The position numbers were made by a program, and so were the translations under genes. A stretch of DNA of 64,000 nucleotides from a virus: the IMG/VR virus record IMGVR_UViG_3300007735_000795, positions 34,767-98,766 of that record; one strand, 5' to 3'. The notes beneath the pieces are model-generated. The model was not told where the DNA came from and searched no databases. It saw only the letters and a list, made by a program, of their open reading frames with translations. The stretch's first letter is position 1. Each line of letters begins with the position of its first letter. Positions 234 to 54,613 of this stretch are shown here, in pieces.

Positions 234-806
234 TTACTTTAAATTATAGTATTCTTTTATTTCATCCAATTGTGACGGATCAACCATGAACGATTCCCAA
301 TCATCCTTTGCTATTTCAACATCTTTCACATCAATGTAAAATGTTTTAGGTGTGAATGGAAATGATTTGACATATCCTCTACTGCTGATCATCTTACTTT
401 GGTCTCCTGTTTTATAGTCTTCTTCATTAATCCAACACCTACCTGTCCAACAAACACCATTTTGGTCTCGTTTCACTATAGCATCAATGTAATATGCTTC
501 TCCATCTTCACCATCTTTAAATAAAGCAGAGCAACGTTTGTTTTGATACCAAGGTTTTCCATTGCCTAAGTCTCTTACATCACCCCATTCTTCATCCTTA
601 CCTGTGATTGGTAGTAGTGGTTCATAGTTTGCTAGTTTATGGAATATATTAGCAACTATAGGAGCTGAGTGGCCTGAATGGCCTTGTTTAGCAAATACTT
701 CCATTAGTTGCATTACTGCTTCTCCTATCATTCCTCCATAGAAAGAGTCTTTATCAAAGAAGCCTGCTGTTTGCAGTTCTAGTTTTGCGTGGTCGATTGA
801 GTTCAT
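234..806 (-). CDS. hypothetical phage protein
   Basis: 190 aa ORF, ATGA-coupled to upstream gene. Confidence 0.8.
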   Translation of the reverse strand: MNSIDHAKLELQTAGFFDKDSFYGGMIGEAVMQLMEVFAKQGHSGHSAPIVANIFHKLANYEPLLPITGKDEEWGDVRDLGNGKPWYQNKRCSALFKDGEDGEAYYIDAIVKRDQNGVCWTGRCWINEEDYKTGDQSKMISSRGYVKSFPFTPKTFYIDVKDVEIAKDDWESFMVDPSQLDEIKEYYNLK

Positions 807-1003
807 AGGTAACTTTGTTGAGGTTTATCGTTAGGTGTTTTTAGTGATTCGTGATGAAAAATATGCTTATTTGATTCAATACGTTCTAGATTGTCCAATT
901 GTTTTTTATAAGCATTCAATTCAGCTTCAAGTATTAGTTTTTCTGTTTGTAAATTTTTAATATGTTCTTTACAATCAGCTATTGCTCTTTCTATTTTATT
1001 CAT
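803..1003 (-). CDS. coiled-coil hypothetical protein
   Basis: Likely start MNKIERAIADC at 1003, which avoids overlap with the upstream gene. Confidence 0.65.
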   Translation of the reverse strand: MNKIERAIADCKEHIKNLQTEKLILEAELNAYKKQLDNLERIESNKHIFHHESLKTPNDKPQQSYL

Positions 1004-1007
1004 ATTT

Positions 1008-1223
1008 TTATTTTTTGTATGTTTCGTTGTAGTATTCAGATGCCATATCTTGATACCCAATTAGTCTTGTTGACTCTACTTGGCATCCTACGCCAAAGGC
1101 ATCAATAATCTGCTCACGCTCCATTTCCAAATACATGTCCCAGTTAACCACCATTTTAGTCCCTAATTTTATTTCAGAGTCTATACTTTCTCTTAAAAGT
1201 TGGATTGCTGTTTGTTTACTCAT
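1008..1223 (-). CDS. small hypothetical protein, KQTA/MEREQII family
   Basis: MSKQTAIQLL...MEREQII; shares blocks with 2096..2317. Confidence 0.7.
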   Translation of the reverse strand: MSKQTAIQLLRESIDSEIKLGTKMVVNWDMYLEMEREQIIDAFGVGCQVESTRLIGYQDMASEYYNETYKK

Positions 1224-1389
1224 TATTTTTTTCTTTATTTTCATTTAATTTAATTACTTCATTTACAATTTTTTCAAGTAATTGTAATGTGTATGTTTGG
1301 TTATGGTAAATTAATCCGCGCCCATCATCTGAAGCGTTATTATCTGAAATCTCAATTTCAGTTGTAAAATACTTGACTACTATTTTCAT
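1216..1389 (-). CDS. 57 aa hypothetical protein
   Basis: MKIVVKYFTTEIEISD...; ATG within junction repeat (hand-translated, below ORF-track cutoff). Confidence 0.65.
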   Translation of the reverse strand: MKIVVKYFTTEIEISDNNASDDGRGLIYHNQTYTLQLLEKIVNEVIKLNENKEKNNE

Positions 1390-1559
1390 TGCTCACCTCC
1401 TTCATTTGATTGAATTAAAAAGAAAATCAAACATAAAATAGTTATACACCAACGATGCAACTCAATATCTTCCTTGTATTTGAATTGAGACGCACTATAT
1501 ATACCAATAGTCATTGCTGATACGTAACTTAGAATTTTGAATATTATTTGTTTACTCAT
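1386..1559 (-). CDS. 57 aa small membrane protein
   Basis: MSKQIIFKILSYVSAMTIGIY...WCITILCLIFFLIQSNEGGEQ*; two hydrophobic stretches; ATGA-coupled at both ends. Confidence 0.65.
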   Translation of the reverse strand: MSKQIIFKILSYVSAMTIGIYSASQFKYKEDIELHRWCITILCLIFFLIQSNEGGEQ

Positions 1560-1813
1560 TGCTCACCTCCTTTGATTTTATCTCTCATCCATTTAGCACC
1601 TTGTACAAAACATCTTCTATAATTTTGCACATCTATTGAAAGACCTATATGTTTTTCTTTGGCAAACTTTTCTATCTCTTCATCTGAGATTTCAGGAATA
1701 ATCGGTTTTTCCGATTTTTCTGGTACATGGTCAAGAAAAGTATTGGAGACTTTGGTGTCACTGCTTGTTATGGTTTCCGCGTGTTCATAGCGGCTGAATT
1801 CTTTGTTATTCAT
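1556..1813 (-). CDS. hypothetical protein (EISDEEIEK...GAKWMR...KGGEQ)
   Basis: ORF track 1556..1828; likely start MNNKEF at 1813 (TAATG coupling). Confidence 0.7.
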   Translation of the reverse strand: MNNKEFSRYEHAETITSSDTKVSNTFLDHVPEKSEKPIIPEISDEEIEKFAKEKHIGLSIDVQNYRRCFVQGAKWMRDKIKGGEQ

Positions 1814-1923
1814 TATCTTGTTCTCCAAATATTTAAAATTATTTTAAATCTGAAAAAAGGAGAGTCTTTAAATACCTCTGACTTATCAAAAAGGATATTA
1901 AGAGTTCTTCTTATTTTACTCAT
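1813..1923 (-). CDS. 36 aa hypothetical peptide
   Basis: MSKIRRTLNILFDKSEVF...IWRTR*; coupled at both ends. Confidence 0.5.
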   Translation of the reverse strand: MSKIRRTLNILFDKSEVFKDSPFFRFKIILNIWRTR

Positions 1924-2099
1924 TGCTCACTTCCTTTAATTTCAGTAAATGTTGCTTTTGCCTTGAGGATTCCGTACTTACCCCCAATAATTTCTCTTTG
2001 GTACCTACCGCTAAGAATGTCGTTTTTCAATTCAGCAATTTCTTGCTCTCCCTTTTCATCAACGGTAATAACAAGTTTGATTTCGTACACCTTATTCAT
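1920..2099 (-). CDS. 59 aa hypothetical protein
   Basis: MNKVYEIKLVITVDEKG...KGSEQ*; coupled by junction repeats. Confidence 0.7.
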   Translation of the reverse strand: MNKVYEIKLVITVDEKGEQEIAELKNDILSGRYQREIIGGKYGILKAKATFTEIKGSEQ

Positions 2100-2317
2100 T
2101 GCTCACCTCCTTTGTATGTTAGAATCAAATACTCAGCAGTAAGTCCTGTGGCTCTGCTTTTTTCCACGATTTCAATAATCTGCTCACGCTCCATTGCTTT
2201 CGCTTGTTCAAATAGCTTCTCAACATTATTCAAATAGCTATTTTTATCTAATGGATTAAAATCAATTCCTTTTTTTAGCTGCTCTTGCAACCATTCTACT
2301 GCTGTTTGTTTTTTCAT
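2096..2317 (-). CDS. small hypothetical protein, KQTAVEWL family
   Basis: MKKQTAVEWL...MEREQII...KGGEQ. Confidence 0.75.
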   Translation of the reverse strand: MKKQTAVEWLQEQLKKGIDFNPLDKNSYLNNVEKLFEQAKAMEREQIIEIVEKSRATGLTAEYLILTYKGGEQ

Positions 2318-2577
2318 AGGTCTCCTCTATTGATTTTATAATTATAACCTTTAGTTTCTAAACACTTATTGATCCTATCAACAAAATGCCATTCCGGTTC
2401 TGTATCATGTACCTCTGGGTGTACTGATGCTACTTGAGCAATTTGCTCTGCTACTAATTGTTTTAATTCTTTTTCAGAAACAAATTTGTCTCCAAAAATA
2501 ACATCCTTAATGTTTTGGTAAGCATGAGTACACGCCTCATTACCTTCTTCTGTGAACATTTCAAATTCTACTATCAT
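2314..2577 (-). CDS. hypothetical protein
   Basis: 87 aa ORF, coupled to downstream gene. Confidence 0.7.
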   Translation of the reverse strand: MIVEFEMFTEEGNEACTHAYQNIKDVIFGDKFVSEKELKQLVAEQIAQVASVHPEVHDTEPEWHFVDRINKCLETKGYNYKINRGDL

Positions 2578-2591
2578 AACCTTTATTTGTT

Positions 2592-2870
2592 TTATTTAGT
2601 TTTTGGTGAACATCCTAACATGAAACTAGTCAGGAATGCTTGATGTCTGCGTTTTGGAATTTTGTTTTCTTTTAACACATCTTTAACAATTTGCTCCATT
2701 ACTTCTTGCTCACATTCATATTCTAGAAATGGAATAATTTTTTGTCCAAACTCATTGAGCGGAGCATCTTCTAATAATTGATCAAAATCACCTTTAGGTG
2801 TACTCGCAGCAAATGCTCTACGATACATTTCAGTTAATACATTGTAGTCTTTTCGTTCTTGTTTTGTCAT
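2592..2870 (-). CDS. hypothetical protein
   Basis: 92 aa ORF directly after class-1 promoter. Confidence 0.75.
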   Translation of the reverse strand: MTKQERKDYNVLTEMYRRAFAASTPKGDFDQLLEDAPLNEFGQKIIPFLEYECEQEVMEQIVKDVLKENKIPKRRHQAFLTSFMLGCSPKTK

Positions 2871-2887
2871 AACGTTTTAATTACAGT

Positions 2888-2926
2888 TAAATATACGACA
2901 AAAGACCTGGAAATCCAAGTCTTTTG
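2888..2926 (-). terminator. hairpin terminator overlapping a class-1 promoter
   Basis: CAAAAGACTTGG-ATTT-CCAGGTCTTTTG stem; CTTGG..CGTATATTTA promoter embedded. Confidence 0.65.
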
Positions 2927-2946
2927 CGCAAGAAATTGTAGTTTTT

Positions 2947-3084
2947 TTATTTTGACCAGCCGCAGCCACCATTTTGATGAACATTTGTTCTAGAAATGCT
3001 TCCTGGTCTATACCATGCTGGTTTTTGGGCTACACATGAATAAAACAAAATTGAAATTAAAATAAGTTTAAGTGCTGTTTTCAT
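2947..3084 (-). CDS. 45 aa putative lipoprotein
   Basis: MKTALKLILISILFYS-C-VAQKP...; signal peptide with lipobox-like Cys. Confidence 0.6.
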   Translation of the reverse strand: MKTALKLILISILFYSCVAQKPAWYRPGSISRTNVHQNGGCGWSK

Positions 3085-3806
3085 AATTTATTAATTTTTA
3101 TTTGTTTGTTTTCGTATACTAAATATTGTGGTTGGTTGTCTAATACATCAATAAAGTAATAACGTCCACCAGTTGCTTTACCTTTAGTATCAATTTCATT
3201 TACACTAGTATGACCAACTACTTGAATGTATTGTTTTTTCATTGGGTGTCGTTTTAACACTTTCATTAGACTTCTAGGACGAATCCAAATCGGTGTTTGA
3301 AATGTATCATCACCATAAGGATCACTATGTCCATATCCATTATCTGCAAATTTGAATTTATGTGGTTGAAAATACCATAAGTCATTTATAAATTCAACCA
3401 CGTCTTGTCCATCCCATCCACAATTTTTTAACCATTCAGGACTAACACCAGCATGACTAAATAACAAATCATCATACTGATAAGTCATTTGTAAATGGTG
3501 TCTGTTTGTTTCTAGTATGTTACCAATTTCCAAATAAAGACTATGTTGGAATCCACTATAACGTTCATTACAAATATTCATATAATGAAAGTCATGATTA
3601 CCAATTAGCATTATCACTTCACATTGTGGGTTTTCTAATTTCCAACGTACAATGTTTTTGAAGTTATGGATTTGGTCTATACCTGGAATGTCAAAACTAT
3701 CAAAGTAGTCTCCTACAAATACAACAGTATTTGGTTGTTCTTTTTCTAGAATTTGTTCCCAAACATTACGACCATGAATGTCTCCTATTGCTACTAACTT
3801 ATGCAT
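3081..3806 (-). CDS. calcineurin-like metallophosphoesterase
   Basis: GDIHG, GDYFD, GNHD, SHAG and GHT motifs. Confidence 0.92.
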   Translation of the reverse strand: MHKLVAIGDIHGRNVWEQILEKEQPNTVVFVGDYFDSFDIPGIDQIHNFKNIVRWKLENPQCEVIMLIGNHDFHYMNICNERYSGFQHSLYLEIGNILETNRHHLQMTYQYDDLLFSHAGVSPEWLKNCGWDGQDVVEFINDLWYFQPHKFKFADNGYGHSDPYGDDTFQTPIWIRPRSLMKVLKRHPMKKQYIQVVGHTSVNEIDTKGKATGGRYYFIDVLDNQPQYLVYENKQIKINKL

Positions 3807-6278: not shown

Positions 6279-6611
6279 TCAGTGGATTATTTTGTAAAAT
6301 TTTATTCTAATACGACGCTTGAAACAGTTGAGTTTAGTCCATGTTTTTCTAATAGTAGTTTCATATTCATTACTATGGATATGTTCAAAAGCATTTTTTA
6401 TATATTTTTTTATTCTAGAATGCTTTTTGGCCAATTCAAAAAACTGTCCACCATTAAAACAATTCATATTCCATTTTCCACTTCTCCAAGTTGATAATAA
6501 GGTGTTTTTGTCACCACTATCATCCGTTAACCATACATAAATGGCTTTGTCCCAATTGTCAGCAACGATTTGCAACGAATAGTTGTCTTTAAGTGTAATT
6601 GTGTTTGTCAT
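6279..6611 (-). CDS. hypothetical protein
   Basis: Likely start MTNTITLK at 6611. Confidence 0.65.
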   Translation of the reverse strand: MTNTITLKDNYSLQIVADNWDKAIYVWLTDDSGDKNTLLSTWRSGKWNMNCFNGGQFFELAKKHSRIKKYIKNAFEHIHSNEYETTIRKTWTKLNCFKRRIRIKFYKIIH

Positions 6612-6636
6612 AACTTTTATTTTACGTAAATATAAT

Positions 6637-7191
6637 TTACTTACTTTTATTATCAAAATTTACTACCATTAAAGTGTCCCCAAAGTGTGAACCAGTGTCT
6701 GGTTTTATCCAAAAGTCTAAATAGTTATGTTTCACTGCATTTTTAGCATACTTATTCATGACTGGTTTACCTGTGTTGTATGCTCCAGCGGCTTTACCCC
6801 AATCCTTATAACGTTTATACCATTCCTGTAGCATTTTCATAGAAATTTCTACATTTAATTCTATACTGTCCCTTAACATTGATTTTGGTACTTTGAAACC
6901 AGCATAGTAAGAAGCATATTGAGGCATAATTTGCATTGCTCCTAATGCTCCAGCACTTGACTTTTGTTTATGGTTATAATTTGTGTGATGTGGGCCTAAG
7001 TATCCTGTTTCTATACGAGCAATGTTAAAAGCAACGTGTATAGGAATGTCGTATAATGAGGCATAAGTTGTAATTGATTTGTATAGTCGTTGAGCAGGTG
7101 TTTGTTGTACGGGAACTTCAATTCTGTTTTTGGCGGTGATAATAATTATTAAAATTAGACAAGTGACAAGAAATAATAATAACTTTTTCAT
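6637..7191 (-). CDS. lytic transglycosylase (SLT domain) with N-terminal membrane anchor
   Basis: IETG, SSAGALGAMQIMP, AYN.G motifs. Confidence 0.9.
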   Translation of the reverse strand: MKKLLLFLVTCLILIIIITAKNRIEVPVQQTPAQRLYKSITTYASLYDIPIHVAFNIARIETGYLGPHHTNYNHKQKSSAGALGAMQIMPQYASYYAGFKVPKSMLRDSIELNVEISMKMLQEWYKRYKDWGKAAGAYNTGKPVMNKYAKNAVKHNYLDFWIKPDTGSHFGDTLMVVNFDNKSK

Positions 7192-7207
7192 GGTTTTTAA
7201 TTTTCCA

Positions 7208-7240
7208 TTAATATAATAAAAAAAGGCCCGAAGGCCTAGT
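7208..7240 (-). terminator. intrinsic terminator with cUUCGg tetraloop, overlapping next promoter
   Basis: AGGCC-TTCG-GGCCT-T-run then TATATTAA. Confidence 0.85.
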
Positions 7241-7241
7241 T

Positions 7242-7520
7242 TTATTTATGTAGAGGGGGGGGGGGGGGAATTGCTGATGAAAACACGGATGGATTTGGGT
7301 TATAAGGAATAATTTTATCATTTGTTATTTTAAATTCATTCTTAAACTTCCCTGCATTTACAAATGATTCTTTCCAAGCATTAAATACTGCTTCATTATT
7401 TATCAGTATATATTTATTCTGAACGTCTTCAAAGGTTATTTTAGTTATATCTTTAATTACATTTTCATTTTCAGTTAAATGTTCACGTCTCCATTTGTAT
7501 GTGCTAAAATTGTCTTTCAT
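7242..7520 (-). CDS. hypothetical protein with DNF..LTE leader (putative packaged protein)
   Basis: MKDNFSTYKWRREHLTE; own class-2 motif (7535-7543) and terminator. Confidence 0.7.
   Translation of the reverse strand: MKDNFSTYKWRREHLTENENVIKDITKITFEDVQNKYILINNEAVFNAWKESFVNAGKFKNEFKITNDKIIPYNPNPSVFSSAIPPPPPLHK
7255..7268 (+). repeat. G14 homopolymer
   Basis: 14 consecutive G, encoding poly-Pro at the C-terminus of 7242..7520. Confidence 0.95.
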
Positions 7521-7568
7521 AATTGTTTATTTATTATAAATATATGAAAATAAATTAAATTATCCAAA

Positions 7569-7748
7569 TTAAATTAAACCAGTTTTTAACCATTTATATG
7601 CACAAACCAAAGCATCAGCACGGTTCATAATTAATTCATACCTGGACACCAGTTTTTGAAATTCAACCAGTTTATTACGGGAATGTGCTTCCCACAACAG
7701 TTTTTCTGCTTCAATTTCGTAATTGTAGTTATGTTTAATTTTAATCAT
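7569..7748 (-). CDS. 59 aa hypothetical protein
   Basis: MIKIKHNYNYEIEAEKLLWEAH...; preceded by AAAGGAGGTG. Confidence 0.6.
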   Translation of the reverse strand: MIKIKHNYNYEIEAEKLLWEAHSRNKLVEFQKLVSRYELIMNRADALVCAYKWLKTGLI

Positions 7749-7911
7749 AGCACCTCCTTTTTGGTTTTTTCCAAATTGAAGGTTTAGGACGAGGATTAGC
7801 TGTAACCCAAGTTGTTTTTTTAAGTCTTTTTTTGTCTGCTACTGTGATGCCTTTATACGGCACACAAGACGGTATCAGCAGTAACATAACCATTACTACT
7901 AATTTTTTCAT
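7741..7911 (-). CDS. 56 aa basic putative lipoprotein
   Basis: MKKLVVMVMLLLIPS-C-VPYKG...; hand-translated. Confidence 0.6.
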   Translation of the reverse strand: MKKLVVMVMLLLIPSCVPYKGITVADKKRLKKTTWVTANPRPKPSIWKKPKRRCYD

Positions 7912-7923
7912 TTTAAAGTGTTG

Positions 7924-8589
7924 TTACTGGTTCTGCTTAATTAAATTAGCAACTGATTCACCATTTAACAATAAATGCTCTTTAAATTCATCTGTAAAGC
8001 AGCATCCATTTTCTTCTTTAGATTTAATAAATTCTTTAGGTACATCACTAAATACCCAGTCAACTACTAATATTCCTATTAAATTACCATTTGGTGTTCC
8101 AAATTTAGAACTGCCCCTGTCATAAATTGGAATAGCAGCTGATGCTTGGGTGCTTGTTTTTCTGAGTAATGCCTTAGTGGTTATGTCTTCTATTTTTTCT
8201 ATGTCATTATAGAAAAATTTATTTTCAATTGTAGACTTGATAAGTGAAGTATAGTGACTTACAAAGAAATTTATCATGTTGTTTGATAGTGGTTCTAAAC
8301 CATCAGATGTTCTTTCGTAAGTAACAGATGCTTTCTGCATTGGAGAGTTAGTATAAAACGTTCCACCATTGTGAAACTGAATTAAGTATACTCTGTCTGC
8401 TTCATATTCGTTTTTAATTTCCTCAACTGTAAGATGAATGATTTCATCTTTATTAATTTGAGTCATTAATTTTTTTCTAGAACTGGATTGGTGTTTTTCG
8501 TCTAACCATTTCTTAAAATACCCCGCCGTTATTAGTGTAACTATTATTGACGTGACTGAAGTAATCACAGTTATAATAATACTTTCCAT
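7924..8589 (-). CDS. single-TM protein with GAF-like domain (T4 holin T-like architecture)
   Basis: N-terminal TM; ADRVYLIQF...IPIYD...LIGILVVDW GAF pattern; class-2 motif at 8620-8628. Confidence 0.65.
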   Translation of the reverse strand: MESIIITVITSVTSIIVTLITAGYFKKWLDEKHQSSSRKKLMTQINKDEIIHLTVEEIKNEYEADRVYLIQFHNGGTFYTNSPMQKASVTYERTSDGLEPLSNNMINFFVSHYTSLIKSTIENKFFYNDIEKIEDITTKALLRKTSTQASAAIPIYDRGSSKFGTPNGNLIGILVVDWVFSDVPKEFIKSKEENGCCFTDEFKEHLLLNGESVANLIKQNQ

Positions 8590-36351: not shown

Positions 36352-36834
36352 TTAAAAATAATCATCCTGATCTTTCTGGGTTGGGTCTGTATTGTGACCA
36401 AACTCATCATAATCATAGTCATCCTCTTCATCACTATCATTATCTTCTCTACCAAACAATACCTTTAATTCATCTAATACTTCATCTACAATATTTTTTA
36501 AATCAGGATTATCAGAAGCTATTTGCTCTAGTTGAGGCATTACCTCTTCATCAAAAGTATCTTCTGGGTAGTCTATAAGTTTATTTATTGTGTCATCTAT
36601 TTCTTTAAGAGCAGATGCTAGTTCTTTTACTGTTCCTACTTTAGGAGGTGTTTTAAGTTTGTTTAAATATAATGCTACTTTTACTCTGTCGGCAGGATCA
36701 TAAACATTATTAGCATCCTGAGTGTTTATGTATAATTTTAAAATATGTTGGTATGGATTGTCAGCTAATTGTTTAAATTGGCTTTCAGTAATCAAACCAG
36801 CCAATTTTTGCATTTTAAGGAACTCTTTATTCAT
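36352..36834 (-). CDS. hypothetical protein with MQKLAGLITE leader and acidic tail (putative packaged protein)
   Basis: Own class-2-like motif (36853-36861) and terminator. Confidence 0.7.
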   Translation of the reverse strand: MNKEFLKMQKLAGLITESQFKQLADNPYQHILKLYINTQDANNVYDPADRVKVALYLNKLKTPPKVGTVKELASALKEIDDTINKLIDYPEDTFDEEVMPQLEQIASDNPDLKNIVDEVLDELKVLFGREDNDSDEEDDYDYDEFGHNTDPTQKDQDDYF

Positions 36835-36872: not shown

Positions 36873-37127
36873 CTAATAGTCTCCGTACAAATTAAATTTC
36901 TTAGGTGGAGGTGCCTGTACTTCAACTGTTTTTTCTACTAATGAATACAATTCACCTTTTCTAGGGGACAATTTAAAGTCACAAACGTTTTGTACTTTTT
37001 GATAATATGCTTCTAAAGTGTCAGTTAATGAATTGTAAACAGTATCATCATTCAACAGTGACCACCTGTCACCAGGTGGTACACGTTGAGCGATTAGTTC
37101 TTCTATTAGTTTAATTTCAGTTGACAT
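36873..37127 (-). CDS. hypothetical protein
   Basis: 84 aa, coupled to groEL. Confidence 0.7.
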   Translation of the reverse strand: MSTEIKLIEELIAQRVPPGDRWSLLNDDTVYNSLTDTLEAYYQKVQNVCDFKLSPRKGELYSLVEKTVEVQAPPPKKFNLYGDY

Positions 37128-38743
37128 TAAAACATTCCTCCCATTCCACTAAGGTCTTCTTGTTTAGTTTCTTCAGGTTTATCTACAACAGTACATTCAG
37201 TTAATAGAATTGTTCCTGCTACTGAAGCGGCATTTTCAATTGCTGTACGAGTTACTTTAGTTGGATCAATGATTCCAGCTTGTTTCATATCAACAAACTT
37301 TTGTGTTTCGAGATTATAACCTCTCCAGTTATCACGAACAACAAACAAGTTATTGATTACTTGATATGATTCCATTTCTTCATAACCAGCATTAGTGAGA
37401 ATTTTTATAAATGGTGAAGCACATGCTTTCCAAACAATGTTACCACCTACAGTGTCTCGGTTTGTAATTGATTCACGTGCATATAGTAAAGCAGATCCAC
37501 CACCAGGTACAATACCTTCTTCAATTGCGGCTTTAGTTGCTTGCAAGGCGTCATCCACGCGGTCTTTCTTTTCTTTGACCTCGGTTTCAGTATTACCACC
37601 GACATGAATTATTGCTACTCCTCCGACGAACTTCGCAAGCCTTTCTTGTAATTTTTCTTGTTCGAAAGGGGTCTTTGCTTTTTCGATTTGTTGTTGAAGT
37701 TCTTCAATACGTGTTTGTATTCTCTCAGATTGTCCTTTTCCATCAACTATTGTTGTTTGGTCTTTAGTAACTGTTATTAAACGGGCTTCGCCAAACCACT
37801 TCCAATCGAATTTGTCTAGCTTCATGCCCTTATCAGTACTAAATACCTCACCTCCTGTCAAAGTCGCAATGTCTTCTAAAAGTAGTTTTCTGCGATCACC
37901 AAAGTCAGGTGCTTTTACAGCACACACCTTAATAGTACCCCTCATTTTATTTACAATAAGTGTAGCAAGTGCTTCACCATCAACGTCTTCTCCTATAATA
38001 AGAAGCGGTTTGTTCTGATTAGACACTGCTTCTAATACTGGGAGTAATTCTTTAATAGTAGTAAAACGTTTGTCAGCAATGAGAATCAATGGATTCTCAA
38101 GGGTACAAGTCATTGTGTTGTTATCAGTAACAAAGTAATGTGATTTGTATCCTCTGTCAAATTGCATACCTTCTACTGTTTCAAGGTATGTTTCACCTGA
38201 TTTTGATTCTTCAATGTGTACTACACCTTCACGTCCTACTTTTTGCATTGCTGTAGCAATCAATTCTCCAATTTCAGGGTCATTATTTGCTGAAATGGTG
38301 GCTACTTGTTTAAGTTGGTCTTCAGAACTAATGTCTTGAGAAATGTTTTTACGTAATTCTCTAACAACTTCTTTAACAGCAGAATCAATTTCACGTTTGA
38401 TTTTAACTGCATTAATACCATTATTTAAATGTGTTAATCCATTTTTAACCATTTCTTGGGCCAACAATGTAGAAGTAGTTGTACCGTCACCTGCTCCATC
38501 AGCTGTTTTAATAGCTGCTTGTTTAACAAGTTGTGCTCCTAATTCTTCAATTGGGTCTTCAAGTGAAATATTCCTTGCTACTGTTACCCCATCTTTTGTA
38601 GATTGAGGGTAATCATTGTTTTTTGAAATTACAACATTACGACCATTAGGGCCTAATGTTGATGTAACGGCATTTGCTAATTTATCAATACCACTTACTA
38701 GTTTTTTTCTTGCTTCAGGTCCGAATTCGATAATTTTACTCAT
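37127..38743 (-). CDS. groEL: chaperonin GroEL
   Basis: [45 protein letters not shown] tail. Confidence 0.98.
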
Positions 38744-38749
38744 ATTTTG

Positions 38750-39043
38750 TTATTCTGTTATAATTGCTAATACTTGGTTTTCTGGGCATACCCAGTATTC
38801 TTGGCCATCAAATTCAATTTTGTTTGGTCCCATAGCTGGAAGCATTACTTCCATACCTACTCTTAGACTTGTGTCTATCCAAACACCTGTTGCTGAATGA
38901 TAGCCTTCACCTATTGATACAATTGTTCCAATAAGTGCTTTTTCTTTACCCAAATCGGGTACTATGATTGAGCCGTATAGTGACTCTTCTGATTCGCGGG
39001 GTTTAACTATAACCGCGTTAAATGTTGCTTGTAACTTTTTCAT
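38750..39043 (-). CDS. groES: co-chaperonin GroES
   Basis: GSIIVPD..KEK...G.IVSIGEG; directly upstream of groEL. Confidence 0.92.
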   Translation of the reverse strand: MKKLQATFNAVIVKPRESEESLYGSIIVPDLGKEKALIGTIVSIGEGYHSATGVWIDTSLRVGMEVMLPAMGPNKIEFDGQEYWVCPENQVLAIITE

Positions 39044-39445: not shown

Positions 39446-40168
39446 TTATTGTTCTTTTGCAACAATATAGTAAGTACTTTGCAGATTAGTAACAGAAAAT
39501 GTAAGTTTCATCAATCCATTACTTTTTACAAACAATTGACCATTAGTCATATTTTTATTACACACTAGTATTTCTTTTAGTAATTCAGCATTGTACACCA
39601 ATTTAAAGGTGTTTTCTGAAGGTGTTATATTCTGGATGAAGTATGATACTTTATTTGCATACTCAACGTCTCCTCCAAATGTAAATCCTAATCCTAATTC
39701 ATCCGGTTCAACAACAACATTTTCTACGTTGGGAAGTGCATTTTTTGCTTTAACCAATGCACTGATAATTTCGTTGTTTAGATTTGCTTCCACATCATAT
39801 TCTTCAGGACCATTATATTCACCAGGTTTAGGAATGGTAAGTAAGTCTGCTAAAGTATAATTTAAATTAAATTGTTCATCAGCAATTAGTAATTTGGTAA
39901 TGATTTTGTTTTCCTTAACATAGTCAAGTACTAAATCACCACTTGTAATTGCTAATAATTTATCAAGTTGAGTAGTATTACTAATACCAATTGATGATTC
40001 GGGGAGTGGAAAATTATCATAAACAACTTTACCAATCATTTCTCTAGTAGGAGACATGAAGTTAATGGTGAGTTGTTTGTCTTTATTTATTTCCCATTTA
40101 ACATTTTCTACTAAACCATTTAAATGGTACTTTTCAATAATGGATTGTAATACTAGTTTTGATATCAT
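39446..40168 (-). CDS. DNA sliding clamp (gp45/PCNA-like)
   Basis: 240 aa two-domain beta/alpha pattern ending GLMKLTF...STYYIVA; next to PolB and near clamp loader. Confidence 0.7.
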   Translation of the reverse strand: MISKLVLQSIIEKYHLNGLVENVKWEINKDKQLTINFMSPTREMIGKVVYDNFPLPESSIGISNTTQLDKLLAITSGDLVLDYVKENKIITKLLIADEQFNLNYTLADLLTIPKPGEYNGPEEYDVEANLNNEIISALVKAKNALPNVENVVVEPDELGLGFTFGGDVEYANKVSYFIQNITPSENTFKLVYNAELLKEILVCNKNMTNGQLFVKSNGLMKLTFSVTNLQSTYYIVAKEQ

Positions 40169-40206
40169 ATAACCTTAATATAATAAAATCTTTAGTAAAA
40201 ACCAAA

Positions 40207-41115
40207 TTAAAAACTAAAAAATTTAGTCACATTTGCATTTAACGGCGGAAATTCCCATTTTAAATCACTATAAAGTTCCTTTAATTTGTTTAATAGTAAT
40301 GACTCAAAAATTTCATCTATATCAATATACATTTTAACAAATTTTTCTATCTCATCAGGTACTTTAGCATTTGGTAAACCAATTGTATCTAGTTTGTACA
40401 TGTTTGGTTTTAGGTTAATAATAAAGATTTTATCACCTTCAATTATAGATTCGTATTTTTTATCTAGTTTTTTAAACTTTAATAAGTCATTATAACGAAC
40501 AGCTGCTTTAGTGTTTGAAGGTGCTTTTAGTCTGAAGTTGCTAAACATTTCTCCTGCTCTAGCAGGTACAATGTATGCTTTTATTTGTTTTACTCCAGTA
40601 GGTTTACCTAATTGTCTAATGTCTGTTGTTTTAAGTGATTTGTAAAATTCAATGATTGAATTGTCAATTTCAGTTTTAGTTTTACCAAACAATATGTTTT
40701 TGATAAGTTGTTCTCCAAACGATTTAAACAACTTATTCATGTTAGACTTCATTAGTTCAAGTCCTTTCATATCCAATTCATCAACAGCAACACCTTCTTT
40801 ATTAGTAATATACATAGCATACCTTCGTTTACCAGTAACAAGAATACCCTTAGCAATTACTTCTTGTTTTAACTGAAAGTAGTGTTTTTTAGGGTCAATG
40901 TTAAATAATTCTTTACAAAGAGTATTCAGGTGAGTATTTGATTCGTTTTGAATTTGATTTGCTAATTTTAATATGATTTCATTTTTATTGGTATCATTGA
41001 TTTCAATACCTTGAGATTTCATATGTTCTAGTACAGGACGTAATCCTATAAAAAGACTATCCGTATCTGATATTTTAATATGATTTGTTTCCTTTGTTTC
41101 TGTTTCCGATTTCAT
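40207..41115 (-). CDS. DNA polymerase family B, C-terminal fragment (motif C + thumb)
   Basis: ISDTDS, KRRYA, MKGLE motifs; ATG directly preceded by in-frame TAA. Confidence 0.9.
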   Translation of the reverse strand: MKSETETKETNHIKISDTDSLFIGLRPVLEHMKSQGIEINDTNKNEIILKLANQIQNESNTHLNTLCKELFNIDPKKHYFQLKQEVIAKGILVTGKRRYAMYITNKEGVAVDELDMKGLELMKSNMNKLFKSFGEQLIKNILFGKTKTEIDNSIIEFYKSLKTTDIRQLGKPTGVKQIKAYIVPARAGEMFSNFRLKAPSNTKAAVRYNDLLKFKKLDKKYESIIEGDKIFIINLKPNMYKLDTIGLPNAKVPDEIEKFVKMYIDIDEIFESLLLNKLKELYSDLKWEFPPLNANVTKFFSF

Positions 41116-41842
41116 TTATATAACCGTGTTTTTCTGCTATTTCTGTTGTTTTAAATAATGGTTGTAGATTTGTATAGTGAAAGCATTGTTTTTGTTCTTC
41201 TAGTTTAGTTAAGTCAAAGTTTGAACAAGCTTTAATATGATCTATTTCCCATACTGTTCCATGGTTTTCCCAAGTCATTTCAGGTTTAAATTGTTGTTCT
41301 AAATATAATTTAAGTTCTTCAATAGAACAATTTATTAATTCAAGTACAGATTTTATTTTATATCCTCTAATTACAGCACTATAAAATCTATTTCTTAAAG
41401 TAACTTCAATTTTGTATTGAATATTGTTATTATATCTATCATTCTGGTATGGTCTATCTCTTTCAGCTATGTAGCCATATTTTGAATTATATTCTTTTGT
41501 ACATTCTTTGCACTTGTTTTGTAAACCATGAGGTGCTTTTTTATCAGGATAAAATTCTGTTTTGTTTTTTATATTAAAACATGTGTTGCATTTTTTTATA
41601 TTTTTGTATTTTTCCTCTAAAAGTAACCATTTATATTTGTATTGTTGGAATGTTTCTTTTAATGTTTTACCTTTACGTTTTTCTCTAAACCATAATGCCC
41701 AACATCCATTACAGTAACCGCTTGATTGTAGTTGTTCAAATTCTTCTACACAACCAGTACATCTTTTTCTTAAACCATCTTCAGAATATTTTATTAAATC
41801 TATGTTATGTTTATATTGTTTTCTATTTTTTGTTTTACTCAT
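41075..41842 (-). CDS. HNH homing-type endonuclease
   Basis: CxxC pairs, MTWENHG.VWEIDHI...FHYTNLQPL. Confidence 0.88.
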   Translation of the reverse strand: MSKTKNRKQYKHNIDLIKYSEDGLRKRCTGCVEEFEQLQSSGYCNGCWALWFREKRKGKTLKETFQQYKYKWLLLEEKYKNIKKCNTCFNIKNKTEFYPDKKAPHGLQNKCKECTKEYNSKYGYIAERDRPYQNDRYNNNIQYKIEVTLRNRFYSAVIRGYKIKSVLELINCSIEELKLYLEQQFKPEMTWENHGTVWEIDHIKACSNFDLTKLEEQKQCFHYTNLQPLFKTTEIAEKHGYINEIGNRNKGNKSY

Positions 41843-41883
41843 AATGTATTATTTTATTATAAATATACATAGAGTCTGTCTTC

Positions 41884-41919
41884 TCAATATAAAAAAGAAA
41901 GCTTAGTTTCCCAAGCTTT
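41884..41919 (-). terminator. intrinsic terminator overlapping class-1 promoter, between the polymerase halves
   Basis: AAAGCTTGG-GAAA-CTAAGCTTT-CTTTTTT; CTTGG..TATATTGA at the standard spacing. Confidence 0.8.
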
Positions 41920-41949
41920 ACTTTAAATAGTTTGTTTTAATTAGTTTAA

Positions 41950-42237
41950 CTATGAATTTCCACCTTGGTATTCACCATCCAAGAACCAAAGCACTTCTCC
42001 TTCCTCCATACCATTAACAGCTATATCTAAAGAACCCTTATTAGGATTTAACGTATCTTCTTGATTTTCAATACTGTAAGAAGTATTTGTTTTTTCTAAA
42101 AACTTAATGAATTTAGAAGCTTGTAGTTTCCTTGCTGCGTCTACTATTTCGCTATGAGTTAGTGCCTCATTTAATACTTTAGAATTAGTAGTCATTTTGT
42201 TTTCTACTAAATATTTTTTTAAATCAAAATTATCCAT
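41950..42237 (-). CDS. hypothetical protein with MDNFDLKKYLVE leader (putative packaged protein)
   Basis: Own class-2 motif (42254-42262) and terminator. Confidence 0.75.
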   Translation of the reverse strand: MDNFDLKKYLVENKMTTNSKVLNEALTHSEIVDAARKLQASKFIKFLEKTNTSYSIENQEDTLNPNKGSLDIAVNGMEEGEVLWFLDGEYQGGNS

Positions 42238-42271
42238 GTTATTATAGTTTTATTATAAATATATGTTTTTT

Positions 42272-44020
42272 TTAAAGGTTAAATTTCTTTATTAATTCTT
42301 CTTTACTTAACTGTAGATATTCATTATTTATTTCATTATTTACAAAATCAATAGTATGTCTTGTGAGGGACTGTCCTGTATTAGTAATAGCAGCACTACA
42401 AATTAAATGCCCATCAGTATAACGCCATCCACTTTTAGCAAATGTACCATACATTGCGTTTTGTAGAATTTTAAATGCGTGTTGGAACAAATCATATAGT
42501 TTATAATTAGCCCAATCTTCTTCTTTACCAGCTTTTTTCTTAAGTGCCCTATAATGTTCTCGTTTATCAAACCAGCCTTCTAGAATTTTAGCAACAACAC
42601 TTTGTTCATCTGTTCTAAACATTGCCCCTGAAGCAGAAACTGTAAAGTTATTGTCTTCAATAATTTTAATTAGGTCTCCTAGTTTAATTTTTGCTTGGTT
42701 TAAACTATAATTCTTTTTATTTACTTTTTCAATTACAACTTCTTCGTTTGGGTCTCGTTCTTTAAGTTTTTCTAGACTATGATTTTGTTCATATGTTGGT
42801 CTATGATCAACTTTAATTCTACCTACTAATGTTTCAATACCTAAATTAAGTGATTTAATAATTGAAGGGTATAGTGAAGTAAAGTCTAAGTCAATTACGT
42901 CAAAGTATAAGCCAGGGATTGGTTCTAATAAATAACCACCAGCATATGTTTCCTTAAAGTTTTTAAGTGATGGGTTATGAGTAGTTGGTTTATTAGGTGA
43001 AATTATATTTTCTCGTTTTAGGTGTTTTAAAATAGCACCTTCATTCATAACTGTATTCCAATAAATTGATTCATAAGGAATGTTACAAATGTGAGAAATC
43101 ATAATTGTTAAGTCAATAAACTTAAGTTTAGCCTCTAATGCTTCAATGATTTCAACGTCTCGTAAGTTATAATCTATAAATTTATTTATGTCGTCTCTGA
43201 ATAATGTGTTTAAATTACCTTCATATTCAATTTTACCTAGGTTAACATATTTGGTTCCAATGTCTCCTAATTTATATGATGGTTCTTCCTTCATAATGTA
43301 TTTTTTATGAAGCAACATATAGTCCAAACAATTTATACCTCCAATAGTGATTTGATTTTCACCATTAAATTCTCTAGCATCTACCTTTCTAATTGGAGAC
43401 AAACGTTTAACTTCATCCTCACCTGCAATTTGTTTGATACGGTAATAAAGGTAAGGCATATCAAAGTAGTCTGAATTGTATCCTACTAGAATTGTAGGGT
43501 CTAATTCTTCAAATTTAGATAAAAATTTACCTATCAGTTCTATTTCGTTTCTACAAGGAATGATGTGTTTGTTATCTTGGTTAATTTCCTTAATTTGACC
43601 TGATGGGTCAACAACAAGACATATTTTTTGTTTTGTAGTCACATCTATAAGAGCAATAGATGTAAGAGGCATAGGTGCTTGTTGGACGTATCCTGGTGTT
43701 AAAGCACCTCCCATTTCAATTTCTATATCAATGTAAACAATGTTGTGCCATTCAGGGACAACATCGTCTTCTTTATAGTATAATTCTCGTAATATTAAAA
43801 GTGATTTGTCAATGTCTTTTTCTAACAAATCAGGATCATCTTTATCATACTTTTTAGTTGGAACAGCCCATCCACCTGTTAATACAGGTCTTGCTTTTTC
43901 ACTCCATTCATTGGTGCGTTTCCAAAATGTAGGTTGAAATTGAAACTGCATCCAACCTTGTTTGTCGTCTCGTAAGTAATAGGTATAATTACAACGGTCG
44001 TAGTATATTGCTTGGTACAT
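42272..44020 (-). CDS. DNA polymerase family B, N-terminal fragment (3'-5' exonuclease, motifs A and B)
   Basis: DIEIE, GYNSDYFD, YNLRD, DLDFTSLYPSII, KILQNAMYG; stops before motif C. Confidence 0.93.
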   Translation of the reverse strand: MYQAIYYDRCNYTYYLRDDKQGWMQFQFQPTFWKRTNEWSEKARPVLTGGWAVPTKKYDKDDPDLLEKDIDKSLLILRELYYKEDDVVPEWHNIVYIDIEIEMGGALTPGYVQQAPMPLTSIALIDVTTKQKICLVVDPSGQIKEINQDNKHIIPCRNEIELIGKFLSKFEELDPTILVGYNSDYFDMPYLYYRIKQIAGEDEVKRLSPIRKVDAREFNGENQITIGGINCLDYMLLHKKYIMKEEPSYKLGDIGTKYVNLGKIEYEGNLNTLFRDDINKFIDYNLRDVEIIEALEAKLKFIDLTIMISHICNIPYESIYWNTVMNEGAILKHLKRENIISPNKPTTHNPSLKNFKETYAGGYLLEPIPGLYFDVIDLDFTSLYPSIIKSLNLGIETLVGRIKVDHRPTYEQNHSLEKLKERDPNEEVVIEKVNKKNYSLNQAKIKLGDLIKIIEDNNFTVSASGAMFRTDEQSVVAKILEGWFDKREHYRALKKKAGKEEDWANYKLYDLFQHAFKILQNAMYGTFAKSGWRYTDGHLICSAAITNTGQSLTRHTIDFVNNEINNEYLQLSKEELIKKFNL

Positions 44021-44064
44021 AACATTTTAATATAATAAAAAATGTTTGTAGAGGCAAGGGATTA

Positions 44065-46014
44065 TTAAACTGCTCCAAAAGAAGCAGTATACCATCCTCC
44101 ATCCCAAATATATAATTTATTAGTACTTGTATTAAAATACATTGAACCTGTTTTTGGGTTGGATGGGTTGACTGTATTTGTAGGTATCATGATTGAACCC
44201 CTACTACTACCATCTACATCAACAGTAAATCCATCTTTTTCGGTACCTAATGCTCCTCCTATTCCTACTACAAACAATGAAGTATCATTACCGTGTTCAT
44301 TAAATTTACCAACTACAGTTTGATACGAACCCGAAGCTATAGCATATCCTCCTAAAGCAGTTGAATAAGCGCCTTCTGTTTCTGAATATGTTCCTCCTGC
44401 AAATGAATAAATACCTTTAGCAACTGTATTTGCTCCTTGAGTATGTGAACCATTACCATATGCTAATGTGTTCTCCCCCTCAGCATGAGAATATGAGCCT
44501 GAAGCAATTGAATTATATCCTTCAGCGTGGGAAAAATCACCTCGAGCATCTGTGTCATTACCTTCAGCATGAGAACCGGTACCTCTAGTATATGTTCCCA
44601 AACCTTCAGCATGAGAAAAAGGACCTTCTGTTAGAGAACCTGAACCTTCAGCATGAGAATGTTGTCCTGAAGTCTGTGTGTCTTTACCTTCAGCATGTGA
44701 ATATCCACCTAAAGCCCATGTGTTATAACCTTCAGCATGAACATAAAAACCTGAAGCGGTTGTTTGAGAACCTTCAGCGTGTGAATATTGTCCTGAAGCA
44801 GTTGTTTGATAACCTTCAGCATGTGAGTATTGACCTAAAGCAATTGTTTGATAACCTTCAGCATGTGAATAAGAACCTGAAGCAACTGTTTGAGAACCTT
44901 CAGCATGTGAATATAAACCTAAGGATAAAGTTTGTTGTCCTTCTGCATGTGAATAAGAACCTGAAGCAACTGTTTGAGAACCTTCAGCGTGTGAATATTG
45001 ACCTGAAGACGTTGTTAAATAACCTTCTGCGTGAGACCATGAACCTGATGCTAATGTTTGATATCCTTCAGCATGTGAATAATCACCTAAGGATAAAGTT
45101 TGCCATCCTTCAGAATGAGAGCCTTGTCCTACAGCATCTGTTTGATAACCTTCAGCATGAGAAGAATTACCAGAGGATGTTGTTTGATAACCTTCAGTGT
45201 GTGAATAACCACCTAAAGCAAGTGTAGCTTGACCTTCAGTATGGGAATAATTACCTTGAGCTAATGTTTGATAACCTTCAGCATGAGCTGCTAAACCTAA
45301 AGCAGTTGTTTGCAATCCTTCGGCATGTGAAGAAATACCTGATGCTAATGATGATGAACCTTCTGCGTGTGAAGTAATACCAATTGAGTCGGTTGATCTG
45401 CCTTCAGCATGTGAATAAAGACCTGAAGCTGTTGTTTGAAAACCTTCAGCGTGAGAAGTAGAACCTGATGCTAATGTTTGGTATCCTTCTGCATGTGAAT
45501 AAGAACCTGAAGCAAATGAACCTGAACCTTCAGCATGGGATGCAAAACCATAAGCAGTAGTTTGAGAACCTTCAGCATGTGAATATGAACCGGATGCTAA
45601 TGCTTGATAACCTTCAGCATGAGAAGCAGATCCAATAGCGTCTGTTTCTCGTCCTTCTGAATGGGCATATAAACCTGAAGCTGTTGTTTGATAACCTTCA
45701 GCATGAGTAGAAGTAGTTTTAGCCCATGTTTGCCATCCTTCGGCGTGTGCTGTATAACCAGTTGCTTGTGAATCTCTACCTTGTGCGTGTGAATAATTAC
45801 CTGATGCTGTTACGTTGTCTCCTTGAGCAAATGTATATTCATTGAAAGCAGTAGCATTTACTCCAATCATTATAGAGCCACTAAATTTATTGCTACCTGA
45901 TAGGAAAGCATATGATTTAGAGACATGAAAAAAATTATTGTCTAATTGTTCATAACTAAGAGCAGAACCAGTAACTGTTCTAAATGTAAACGATCCTGAA
46001 TTTAAAAGAGGCAT
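44065..46014 (-). CDS. fibre/adhesin-like protein with YadA-head (Hep_Hag)-type beta-roll repeats
   Basis: About 35 x 14-aa repeats xxTxAxGxxSHAEG; class-2 motif at 46031-46039. Confidence 0.8.
   Translation of the reverse strand: MPLLNSGSFTFRTVTGSALSYEQLDNNFFHVSKSYAFLSGSNKFSGSIMIGVNATAFNEYTFAQGDNVTASGNYSHAQGRDSQATGYTAHAEGWQTWAKTTSTHAEGYQTTASGLYAHSEGRETDAIGSASHAEGYQALASGSYSHAEGSQTTAYGFASHAEGSGSFASGSYSHAEGYQTLASGSTSHAEGFQTTASGLYSHAEGRSTDSIGITSHAEGSSSLASGISSHAEGLQTTALGLAAHAEGYQTLAQGNYSHTEGQATLALGGYSHTEGYQTTSSGNSSHAEGYQTDAVGQGSHSEGWQTLSLGDYSHAEGYQTLASGSWSHAEGYLTTSSGQYSHAEGSQTVASGSYSHAEGQQTLSLGLYSHAEGSQTVASGSYSHAEGYQTIALGQYSHAEGYQTTASGQYSHAEGSQTTASGFYVHAEGYNTWALGGYSHAEGKDTQTSGQHSHAEGSGSLTEGPFSHAEGLGTYTRGTGSHAEGNDTDARGDFSHAEGYNSIASGSYSHAEGENTLAYGNGSHTQGANTVAKGIYSFAGGTYSETEGAYSTALGGYAIASGSYQTVVGKFNEHGNDTSLFVVGIGGALGTEKDGFTVDVDGSSRGSIMIPTNTVNPSNPKTGSMYFNTSTNKLYIWDGGWYTASFGAV
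44350..45840 (-). repeat. coding tandem repeat, 42-bp period
   Basis: Recurrent ccttc(a/t)gc(a/g)tg on + strand every 42 nt. Confidence 0.9.
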
Positions 46015-46059
46015 ATTATAATAGTTTTATTATAAATATTGTCCTATTTTAGATTTTAC

Positions 46060-54575: not shown

Positions 54576-54613
54576 ATTCTAAATATAATAAAAAAGTTTT
54601 ACAAAGCCAAATT

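Follow-up and report, generated by a model that had tools for sequence, protein, structure and literature searches.

A T4-type DNA polymerase gene divided just ahead of its catalytic aspartates, very probably by a portable module, in an uncultured phage

We analysed a stretch of viral DNA of 64,000 nucleotides (nt), referred to below as the window (positions 34,767 to 98,766 of the IMG/VR record IMGVR_UViG_3300007735_000795, which is 98.8 kilobases (kb) long and rated 61% complete), and describe here its gene for a family B DNA polymerase (polB), which is encoded in two separate pieces. In our assessment this gene very probably specifies a two-subunit polymerase of the gp43 type, the split having arrived as a portable module of single origin that replaced the junction of an intact polB resembling that of the related locus L005 (L numbers designate the loci that we compared).

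Anatomy of the divided polymerase gene

The polB N-half, a cargo gene that we call orf95, an endonuclease-like open reading frame (ORF) of 255 amino acids (aa) and the polB C-half all lie on the minus strand (Table 1). The N-half presents, in order, motif A (DFTSLYPS) in the palm, motif B (KILQNAMYG) in the fingers, a palm helix, a 15-aa tail and a TAA stop; it matches Pfam PF03104 (DNA_pol_B_exo1, E 8e-16) and PF00136 (DNA_pol_B, E 1.8e-26, profile positions 14-204 of 453), and the C-half matches positions 257-389 of the latter profile. Among PDB sequences, the N-half has its top match in RB69 gp43 (E 4e-43). Taken together, the pieces show the features by which a T4 gp43-type family B polymerase is recognised, an exonuclease domain followed by a polymerase domain, with motifs A, B and DTDS all found, and the motifs align to K560 (motif B) and D621/D623 (motif C) of RB69 gp43. 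Alignment of the intact L005 protein with RB69 gp43 puts the break at RB69 residues 609-616, in the loop from the palm helix to the strand bearing D621/D623, 8 residues ahead of these catalytic aspartates.

A gap of 1156 nt separates the two halves, an in-frame TAA immediately precedes the ATG of the C-half, and the end of the endonuclease ORF shares 41 nt with the C-half start. An initial annotation, made from the letters of this stretch, had already reported a split between motifs B and C, a gap of ~1.15 kb, the TAA and the overlap, and had called for alignment to intact homologues to map the breakpoint; ORFs, Pfam domains and motif positions agree with that description, and the breakpoint is now mapped to the 609-616 loop. 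Its statement that the C-half starts 15 aa before DTDS needs correction, as 16 residues precede the D.

By protein, the closest named phage is Microcystis phage Mel-JY01, at only 32% identity and with an intact polB (the C-half is 33% identical to the C-terminal part of its PolB), and megablast of positions 40000-44100 against the phage collection gave no match. In an AlphaFold2 (AF2) model of the N-half alone, the tail forms a helix at residues 573-579, with a block mean predicted local distance difference test score (pLDDT) of ~86. The motif A region, residues 361-380, falls below pLDDT 50 in the same model (31-row alignment, weak evidence), which weakly fits a palm that would be incomplete without the C-chain.

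Table 1. Features of the divided polB region in the window, and cargo carried between the halves in related loci
Feature	Position or locus	Strand	Basis and remarks
polB N-half, 582 aa	42272..44020	-	ORF; N-terminal and 3'-5' exonuclease domains, palm, fingers
Tail-coding segment, residues 568-582, YLQLSKEELIKKFNL	42275..42319	-	Junction alignment; kept in this lineage's split alleles, missing from intact relatives
Late-type promoter-like motif TATATTTATAATAAAA	42248..42263	-	11 nt upstream of orf95 ATG
orf95, 95-aa cargo gene	41950..42237	-	ORF, in bay between halves
Terminator hairpin and T-tract fused to early-type promoter-like element (TTG ... TTTTTTATATT)	41885..41919	-	Closes orf95 cassette
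Second late-type copy of TATATTTATAATAAAA	41852..41867	-	9 nt upstream of endonuclease ATG, within weak hairpin pairing ATG region
Free-standing homing-endonuclease-like gene, 255 aa	41075..41842	-	Two CxxC pairs and C-terminal His-Me/HNH-like domain
polB C-half, 302 aa	40207..41115	-	ORF; leader MKSETETKETNH, beta-hairpin with motif C ISDTDS, remaining palm, thumb
Imported split module, approximate	40965..42365	-	Sliding nucleotide identity; outside it, the window matches intact L005
Bay cargo: 255-aa endonuclease	window, L066, L117		
Bay cargo: GIY-YIG + NUMOD endonuclease	L011, L013, L060, L062		
Bay cargo: 308-aa endonuclease	L027		phrog_559 and phrog_9084 matches
Bay cargo: small ORFs without assigned function	several loci		
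Bay cargo: 132-aa ORF, 1037-aa collagen-repeat protein, two small ORFs	L025:7749-11953		4.2 kb

The split junction is a foreign tract in an L005-like gene

IMG/VR was scanned twice, yielding about 150 loci, and deduplication left 51 distinct sequences that span both halves. The polymerase gene is contiguous in 40 of these relatives and split in 11; three partial split contigs bring the split set to 14, and every one is broken at exactly the window's site and carries the same tail. The polB protein of the window is 92% and 91% identical to the intact proteins of L005 and L004, and just 74-84% identical to those of the other split genomes. Intact alleles (an ORF of 863 aa in G005, for instance) read ...NTELKSDKQYICISDTDS... 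across the junction, and split alleles read ...NNEYLQLSKEELIKKFNL followed by a stop, with a restart at MQN-IIISDTDS, or at a longer leader where the endonuclease gene abuts the start. Mis-assembly, a concern raised in the initial annotation, is unlikely, since the order N-half, endonuclease, C-half recurs in contigs from other samples (L066, L117, L158 and L159).

Sliding nucleotide identity delimits the imported tract. The window follows L005 until ~90 nt before the N-half stop; it is then 90-98% identical to the split alleles L066, L117 and L014 and about 50% identical to L004/L005, and past the first ~150 nt of the C-half it is L005-like once more (88-97%). The module thus runs from ~90 nt before the end of the N-half, through the whole region between the cistrons, to ~150 nt inside the C-half. 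A corresponding picture is given by three pairs of split and intact genomes (L011/L016, L013/L017 and L006/L009), in which most 30-nt segments of the flanks are 97-100% identical on both sides and the differences are confined to the junction tract. Split and intact alleles occur together in the IMG samples 3300032331, 3300017917 and 3300007734.

Phylogenetic trees place the junction apart from the rest of the gene. With the N core (residues 1-540) and with the C core (residues 65-290), the tree requires 11 changes of the split state for 11 rows, no better than with shuffled labels; with C-half residues 13-64, all split alleles group together in a single clade, with a value of 93 in the Shimodaira-Hasegawa-like approximate likelihood ratio test (SH-aLRT) and none of 500 shuffles as low. 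Junction distances among intact alleles correlate with those of the backbone (Spearman 0.54, p 5e-4), whereas those of the split module do not track it (Spearman 0.20, p 0.12), which marks the split junction as a foreign, moving allele. A junction that forms one clade, a remainder of polB scattered among intact genomes, and pairs with near-identical flanks together argue for a portable module of single origin. Among related phages, these comparisons indicate, the cassette has moved repeatedly into intact polymerase genes.

An endonuclease-like gene tied to the polymerase site

The 255-aa ORF matches PHROG 1035 ('endonuclease VII', E 1.5e-13) and neither Pfam nor NCBIfam, and a Pfam domain is found in none of its 698 homologues, among which C85, C88, C111, C114, E199, D201, H202, N225 and N247 are invariant. 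Searched against PDB sequences the protein gives chance matches only, and its AF2 model (mean pLDDT 88.9) retrieves nothing from the PDB with Foldseek at E 0.001 or below. A wide fold search returned weak matches to the HNH endonucleases Gme HNH (Z 4.2 over 75 aa, root-mean-square deviation (rmsd) 3.6) and GVE2 HNH (Z 4.0, 81 aa, rmsd 4.9) and to Hpy99I (Z 4.4, 39 aa, rmsd 1.7). The gene was first labelled plainly as HNH; the lack of a Pfam or NCBIfam match speaks against so firm a name, and the PHROG match, the invariant residues and the weak fold matches make it a candidate nuclease of this general kind.

The copies in L066 and L117 are 92-96% identical to that of the window, in genomes whose polB is 74-81% identical. 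Full-length orthologues (52-57% identity) occupy the same polB site in two distant lineages, namely L158, whose polB is 57% identical and whose tail is related, and L159 (738-4187), whose polB is 50% identical and which has a different tail, IQNTPPGQGNKKI, and a C-segment of the intact type; the L159 split may be an independent event. In the other 77 homologous loci fetched, matching begins only at residue ~40 to 140 and no polB piece lies on either side, with the sole exception of L210, where the homologue adjoins an intact polB, so that the full-length lineage is tied to the polB site. This distribution suggests that the 255-aa endonuclease opens the polB site, possibly more than once.

The strongest competing account accepts the two-subunit polymerase but ascribes the spread of the module to ordinary homologous recombination together with selection for cargo or for cleavage resistance, the endonuclease being a later lodger. 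At least six split alleles (L006, L014, L015, L025, L074 and L080) have no recognisable endonuclease, one bay hosts three unrelated endonuclease families, and the recurring promoter and terminator elements that flank the bay could act as recombination sites. We nonetheless consider spread without endonuclease drive unlikely, because full-length endonuclease orthologues sit at this polB site across 50-57% polB divergence, because conservation of the endonuclease is far above that of its flanks, and because the replaced tracts are short with near-equal endpoints (similar, not identical), as in co-conversion. The L159 allele, in which an orthologous endonuclease occurs without the usual tail, likewise points to the endonuclease as the site-opening agent.

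Purifying selection on the junction peptides in the split state

Among twelve split alleles, the ratio of nonsynonymous to synonymous substitution rates (dN/dS) is 0.15 at dS 0.93 for the N-half tail (66 pairs) and 0.11 at dS about 1 for the first ~50 codons of the C-half, and such low ratios at dS about 1 mean that the junction peptides are held by selection in the split state. Both ORFs are open in all 14 split loci as well as in the two distant lineages, L158 and L159, and split alleles are found on contigs that are long (115-155 kb) and in other respects normal. One of these, the 155-kb contig L015, is 95% complete and holds the two polB pieces and no other PolB; the 100% complete contig L004 has a single 863-aa polB. 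In the window's own record, 61% complete as it is, neither a second PolB nor a PolA was matched.

These observations bear on the view that splitting has disabled polB, and that the genomes which carry it are defective or decaying and are replicated by another polymerase or by a co-infecting helper. The incompleteness of the window's record leaves it some room, and selfish endonuclease insertions may do harm; with a junction module that has evolved wholly in the split state to dS about 1 under constraint, reading frames intact in 14 of 14 split loci and beyond, normal contigs, no alternative PolB in the 95%-complete genome and no PolA in the window's record, we judge it very unlikely.

Two polypeptides, very probably without splicing

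A permissive Rfam search (E up to 10) of positions 39500-44500 found nothing inside the gap and two chance matches outside it, and at the gathering threshold no family was matched in 14 related split loci. A Hint or intein Pfam domain is absent from both polB halves of the window. At the junction the N-half has 15 extra aa and the C-half 3-12, less than any split intein requires, even an atypical one.

If the gap were a group I or group II intron with an endonuclease ORF, a spliced mRNA would yield one full-length polymerase. Endonuclease-bearing group I introns are indeed known in phage polymerase genes, such as gene 43B of phage 25, and the insert sits in a conserved catalytic region, a frequent location of introns. 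Beyond the empty Rfam results, however, the gap varies from 0.64 to 4.2 kb with varying contents and is conserved only over ~20 nt past the stop and in the last ~50 nt ahead of the ATG, the tail-coding sequence changes in the manner of a protein (dN/dS 0.15), every C-half has its own ATG right behind a stop, and a strong intrinsic terminator lies within the gap; we give an intron scarcely any credence. Least plausible of all, to the point of being negligible, is ligation of the chains by protein trans-splicing at split intein halves, typical or atypical: naturally split inteins do exist in T4-like PolB genes (PMC11923092), the PolB of the huge phage LR756508.1 is fractured at Hint/intein halves and at 15 aa the N-tail is as long as the N-fragment of an atypical intein, yet neither half has a Hint/intein match, the C-half aligns with intact polB from residue ~12, mostly just MQN stands ahead of the shared C-half sequence and leaves no space for a C-intein of ~100 aa, tail position 1 is not Cys or Ser, and the C-half junction lacks HN followed by C, S or T. 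We note in passing that translational bypass is ruled out by gaps of 0.64-4.2 kb with whole genes inside.

The initial annotation had likewise argued for two polypeptides and against splicing, and had named a covariance-model search over the gap as a check; that search, the missing Hint/intein domains, the purifying selection and the lack of another PolB in the 95%-complete split genome all uphold it at the level of sequence.

Candidate transcription signals around the break

Two exact copies of the 16-mer TATATTTATAATAAAA occur in the whole window, one before orf95 and one before the endonuclease. In at least five split loci (the window, L011, L013, L014 and L074) the N-half stop is followed, immediately or after no more than 12 nt, by the core of this motif, TATTTATAATAAA, and most of the others have a close variant there. 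Six ATGs of the window have the core 9-15 nt ahead of them, among them the start of the tail-fibre-like gene at 46014. For the hairpin at 41898-41919 the predicted energy is -12.8 kcal/mol (z -3.7; none of 200 shuffles was as stable), and the terminator/early-type element of which it is part is conserved, with stem-preserving changes, in L006, L066, L080 and L117. This element belongs to a recurring unit, composed of TTG, ~15-19 nt, TTTTTTAT(T)ATATT and then an ATG within 1-15 nt, often behind a hairpin, which is found on the minus strand at 54595, 44042 (ahead of the N-half), 41896, 36318 and 7224, and which is a candidate for the terminator plus early promoter of this phage group.

The control regions had been read initially as an internal terminator with a class-2 promoter before orf95 and a class-1 promoter before the endonuclease, the two polymerase genes being separately controlled. 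The terminator holds, and both ORFs in the gap do have promoter-like motifs; these are, however, the identical late-type TATATTTATAATAAAA, and the supposed class-1 promoter corresponds to the recurring TTG/TTTTTTAT(T)ATATT unit fused to the terminator. As the N-half has the same class of element upstream, the two halves would appear to be separately transcribed but under similar control.

In split alleles without an endonuclease beside the C-half, the bay closes with a hairpin, a T-tract and ATATTTAnnnAAATAAAAGTT, followed by the ATG. The fused element plausibly ends the late cassette and restarts early-type transcription towards the endonuclease and the C-half. Our reading of the window, L066 and L117 is that the endonuclease with its own late motif was inserted between the restart element and the C-half, giving the latter a new start codon and leader. 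The hairpin at the endonuclease start (-6 to -8 kcal/mol) is kept in these same three loci, although at z -1.26 it is not above shuffles, and it could plausibly mask the start on read-through transcripts. Closure in a hairpin-plus-promoter element recalls the PeSL (promoter-early stem-loop) cassettes, which Arbiol et al. are said to have described in Genome Biol Evol in 2010 and which are reportedly shuffled between related T4-type genomes; those cassettes lie between genes, whereas the bay lies inside an essential coding sequence.

Cargo between the halves and neighbouring genes

The region between the halves ranges from 0.64 to 4.2 kb and its content is specific to each locus (Table 1). At the upper end, the L025 bay holds probable structural genes inside an essential replication gene. 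The product of orf95 has no Pfam, PHROG or NCBIfam match; its N-terminus, MDNFDLKKYL, recurs in a 75-aa cargo ORF of L062. Small ORF families with late motifs ahead share such an N-terminal motif only (MDNFDLKKYL.E.K, ..EEFKRMQKLAGL.. or MKKSELRQIIKEE) and differ in the rest; they include orf95, cargo ORFs in L006, L015, L062, L074, L080, L117, L158 and L159, and, at 36355-36834 on the minus strand of the window, a 160-aa ORF (starting at 36834) of the second family (..EEFKRMQKLAGL..). In L080 (700-1410) a tandem duplication takes in the N-half end that codes for the tail together with the adjoining downstream sequence, and the bay contains a fragment resembling the polB C-terminus (...FPSLNPNIKKFFAF); both look like recombination scars. 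A 66-aa cargo ORF just upstream of the C-half in L074 (8275-8475) ends in ...EEELIKRFDNFVENL, which resembles the N-half tail ..KDELIKRFNI and may be a duplicated or borrowed tail.

Downstream of the C-half lie a 240-aa ORF and then GroES-like and GroEL-like genes. The 240-aa ORF (39446-40168) has no Pfam, NCBIfam or PHROG match, and synteny with Mel-JY01 makes it a candidate sliding clamp; the GroEL-like (538 aa) and GroES-like (97 aa) genes occupy 37127-39043 on the minus strand, three genes downstream of the C-half. Directly upstream of polB, at 44065-46014 on the minus strand, a 649-aa protein with dozens of S/YSHAEG.QT repeats matches phrog_25468 and, weakly, tail-fibre families, with a late-type motif ahead of it at 46025-46040.

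Comparison with other broken genes

Split gp43 is known from the Aeromonas salmonicida phages 25 and 44RR2.8t, where the gene is divided into 43A and 43B (Petrov, Ratnayaka and Karam 2010, J Mol Biol 395:457, as recounted in PMC2988022 and PMC2677866); according to the same two accounts, the 43A and 43B chains of phage 25 co-purify and are polymerase-active. As in the window, a T4-type PolB is there encoded in two cistrons with motifs A and C on different chains, and between the cistrons lies a short untranslated stretch, in some cases with a free-standing endonuclease gene. The parallel, which the initial annotation had drawn, is apt as to a split gp43 and not as to the site: in the 44RR2.8t record the break falls between motifs A and B, in the fingers, and 43B carries both KILINSLYG and DTDS, whereas the window is broken between motifs B and C. 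The endonucleases differ as well, being of GIY-YIG/seg type in phages 25 and 44RR, as against a Pfam-less His-Me/HNH-like protein here and two other families in sister alleles. A portable single-origin module crossing many backbones finds no mention in the reviews PMC2988022 and PMC2677866.

The closest mechanistic parallels are two cases from other enzymes. In the 'genes in pieces' of phage Aeh1 (nrdA-a/mobE/nrdA-b; Friedrich et al. 2007 PNAS; Crona et al. 2011, PMC3045599), a free-standing HNH-type endonuclease likewise breaks up the gene of an essential enzyme, at a point critical for function, and the pieces reassemble without splicing; by the title of PMC3045599, sequences derived from the mobile element serve as interaction domains, a role that in the window the tail and C-segment might play as assembly aids, though here, unlike in Aeh1, this is our conjecture. 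Aeh1 nrdA concerns another enzyme and is a single known instance, whereas the module described here persists without its endonuclease and has other cargo. Of the hallmarks of 'genes in pieces', uninterrupted close relatives (40 of 51) and a free-standing endonuclease-like gene between the pieces are both found here; separate translation and reassembly are suggested indirectly, by selection on the junction and by the lack of another PolB in the 95%-complete split genome. In T4, the gene 39/mobA/gene 60 cassette (Bonocora et al. 2011 PNAS; bioRxiv 10.1101/2022.08.31.505936) similarly combines an endonuclease with an adapted coding sequence, turns a one-gene enzyme into a two-gene one and spreads among related phages; it employs a 50-nt translational bypass, and the window instead has a plain stop, a promoter-like restart element and a new ATG.

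Genes fractured at split inteins (Dassa et al. 2009, PMC2677866), the split-intein PolB1 of phage Aes123 (PMC11923092) and LR756508.1 resemble the window in that replication genes are broken, with endonuclease or other genes in between, and PolB is a recurrent target. The halves of fractured genes end in Hint/intein fragments and are trans-spliced, whereas those of the window carry no intein sequence. In LR756508.1, an uncultured phage of 484 kb (L157, 259000-267600), we observed PolB pieces at ORFs 364-3417 and 6423-8288, one of 1017 aa with a Hint-like end and one of 621 aa with an Intein_splicing match at its start, lying 5 kb apart with four genes between them, including one for dCMP deaminase; this looks like a split-intein 'fractured gene'. 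Finally, the split PolB of Methanothermobacter thermautotrophicus is described as two chains working together (Kelman et al. 1999 JBC, as cited in PMC2677866); it is archaeal, its genes are unlinked and have no associated mobile element, and the likeness lies in a two-chain family B polymerase.

Discussion

In the mechanism that we propose, the N-chain (exonuclease, motifs A and B) and the C-chain (DTDS, thumb) would be translated apart and join non-covalently into one active site, their assembly perhaps aided by the tail and by the C-segment transferred with it. The split would have been imported into this genome, not made there, as a ~1.4-kb portable module that comprises the 15-aa helical tail with its stop; a late-type promoter with an exchangeable cargo bay, occupied here by orf95; a terminator joined to an early-type element for restart; in this genome, a homing endonuclease of HNH-like type with a late motif of its own; and a new ATG with about 50 split-specific codons. 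Early and late transcription would thereby alternate across the module. The likeliest route of transfer would be repair of a double-strand break that the endonuclease makes in the intact allele during co-infection (intronless homing), with co-conversion of the flanks.

Several points weigh against this interpretation. That both chains are made, meet and work is argued from comparative sequence data. The record is 61% complete, and a second polymerase of this particular genome may lie in the missing part. Since at least six split alleles carry no recognisable endonuclease, homing need not be the sole route of spread. The nuclease fold of the endonuclease is weakly supported (Z at most 4.4, no Pfam match), and the promoter assignments are motif-based, a generic sigma-70 scan having found sites no more numerous than in shuffles. 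Lastly, L159 is split at the same site with a different tail, which would make the tail dispensable and may mean that the split has more than one origin.

Phage genes split by endonucleases, split gp43 among them, were already known. What is new is the break site beside the catalytic aspartates, and a single-origin module that crosses backbones, lasts without its endonuclease and carries varied cargo. In the literature searched, coverage of which was incomplete and leaves absence unproven, we found no published report of this split. A broader proposal, which we hold tentatively and consider quite possible rather than probable, is that a self-contained, single-origin gene-splitting module is homing through uncultured T4-like phages, probably of Bacteroidota, with the tail and C-segment as a built-in assembly adaptor and the opened site as a point of entry for endonucleases of three families as well as for unrelated cargo of up to 4.2 kb.

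A polymerase active site naturally divided 8 residues before its catalytic aspartates speaks to how much breakage the family B palm tolerates, knowledge that would be useful for split-polymerase engineering. Dozens of split and intact alleles sit on near-identical backbones, so that intronless homing, the tracts left by co-conversion and the survival of splits that have lost their endonuclease can be studied in an unusually clean natural setting. Should the tail and C-segment turn out to act as an assembly adaptor, NrdA of Aeh1 would have a counterpart, a second mobile element that itself holds together the product of the gene it broke. Automated annotation will label such polymerases as truncated or duplicated, and so distort core-gene phylogenies of these abundant uncultured phages.

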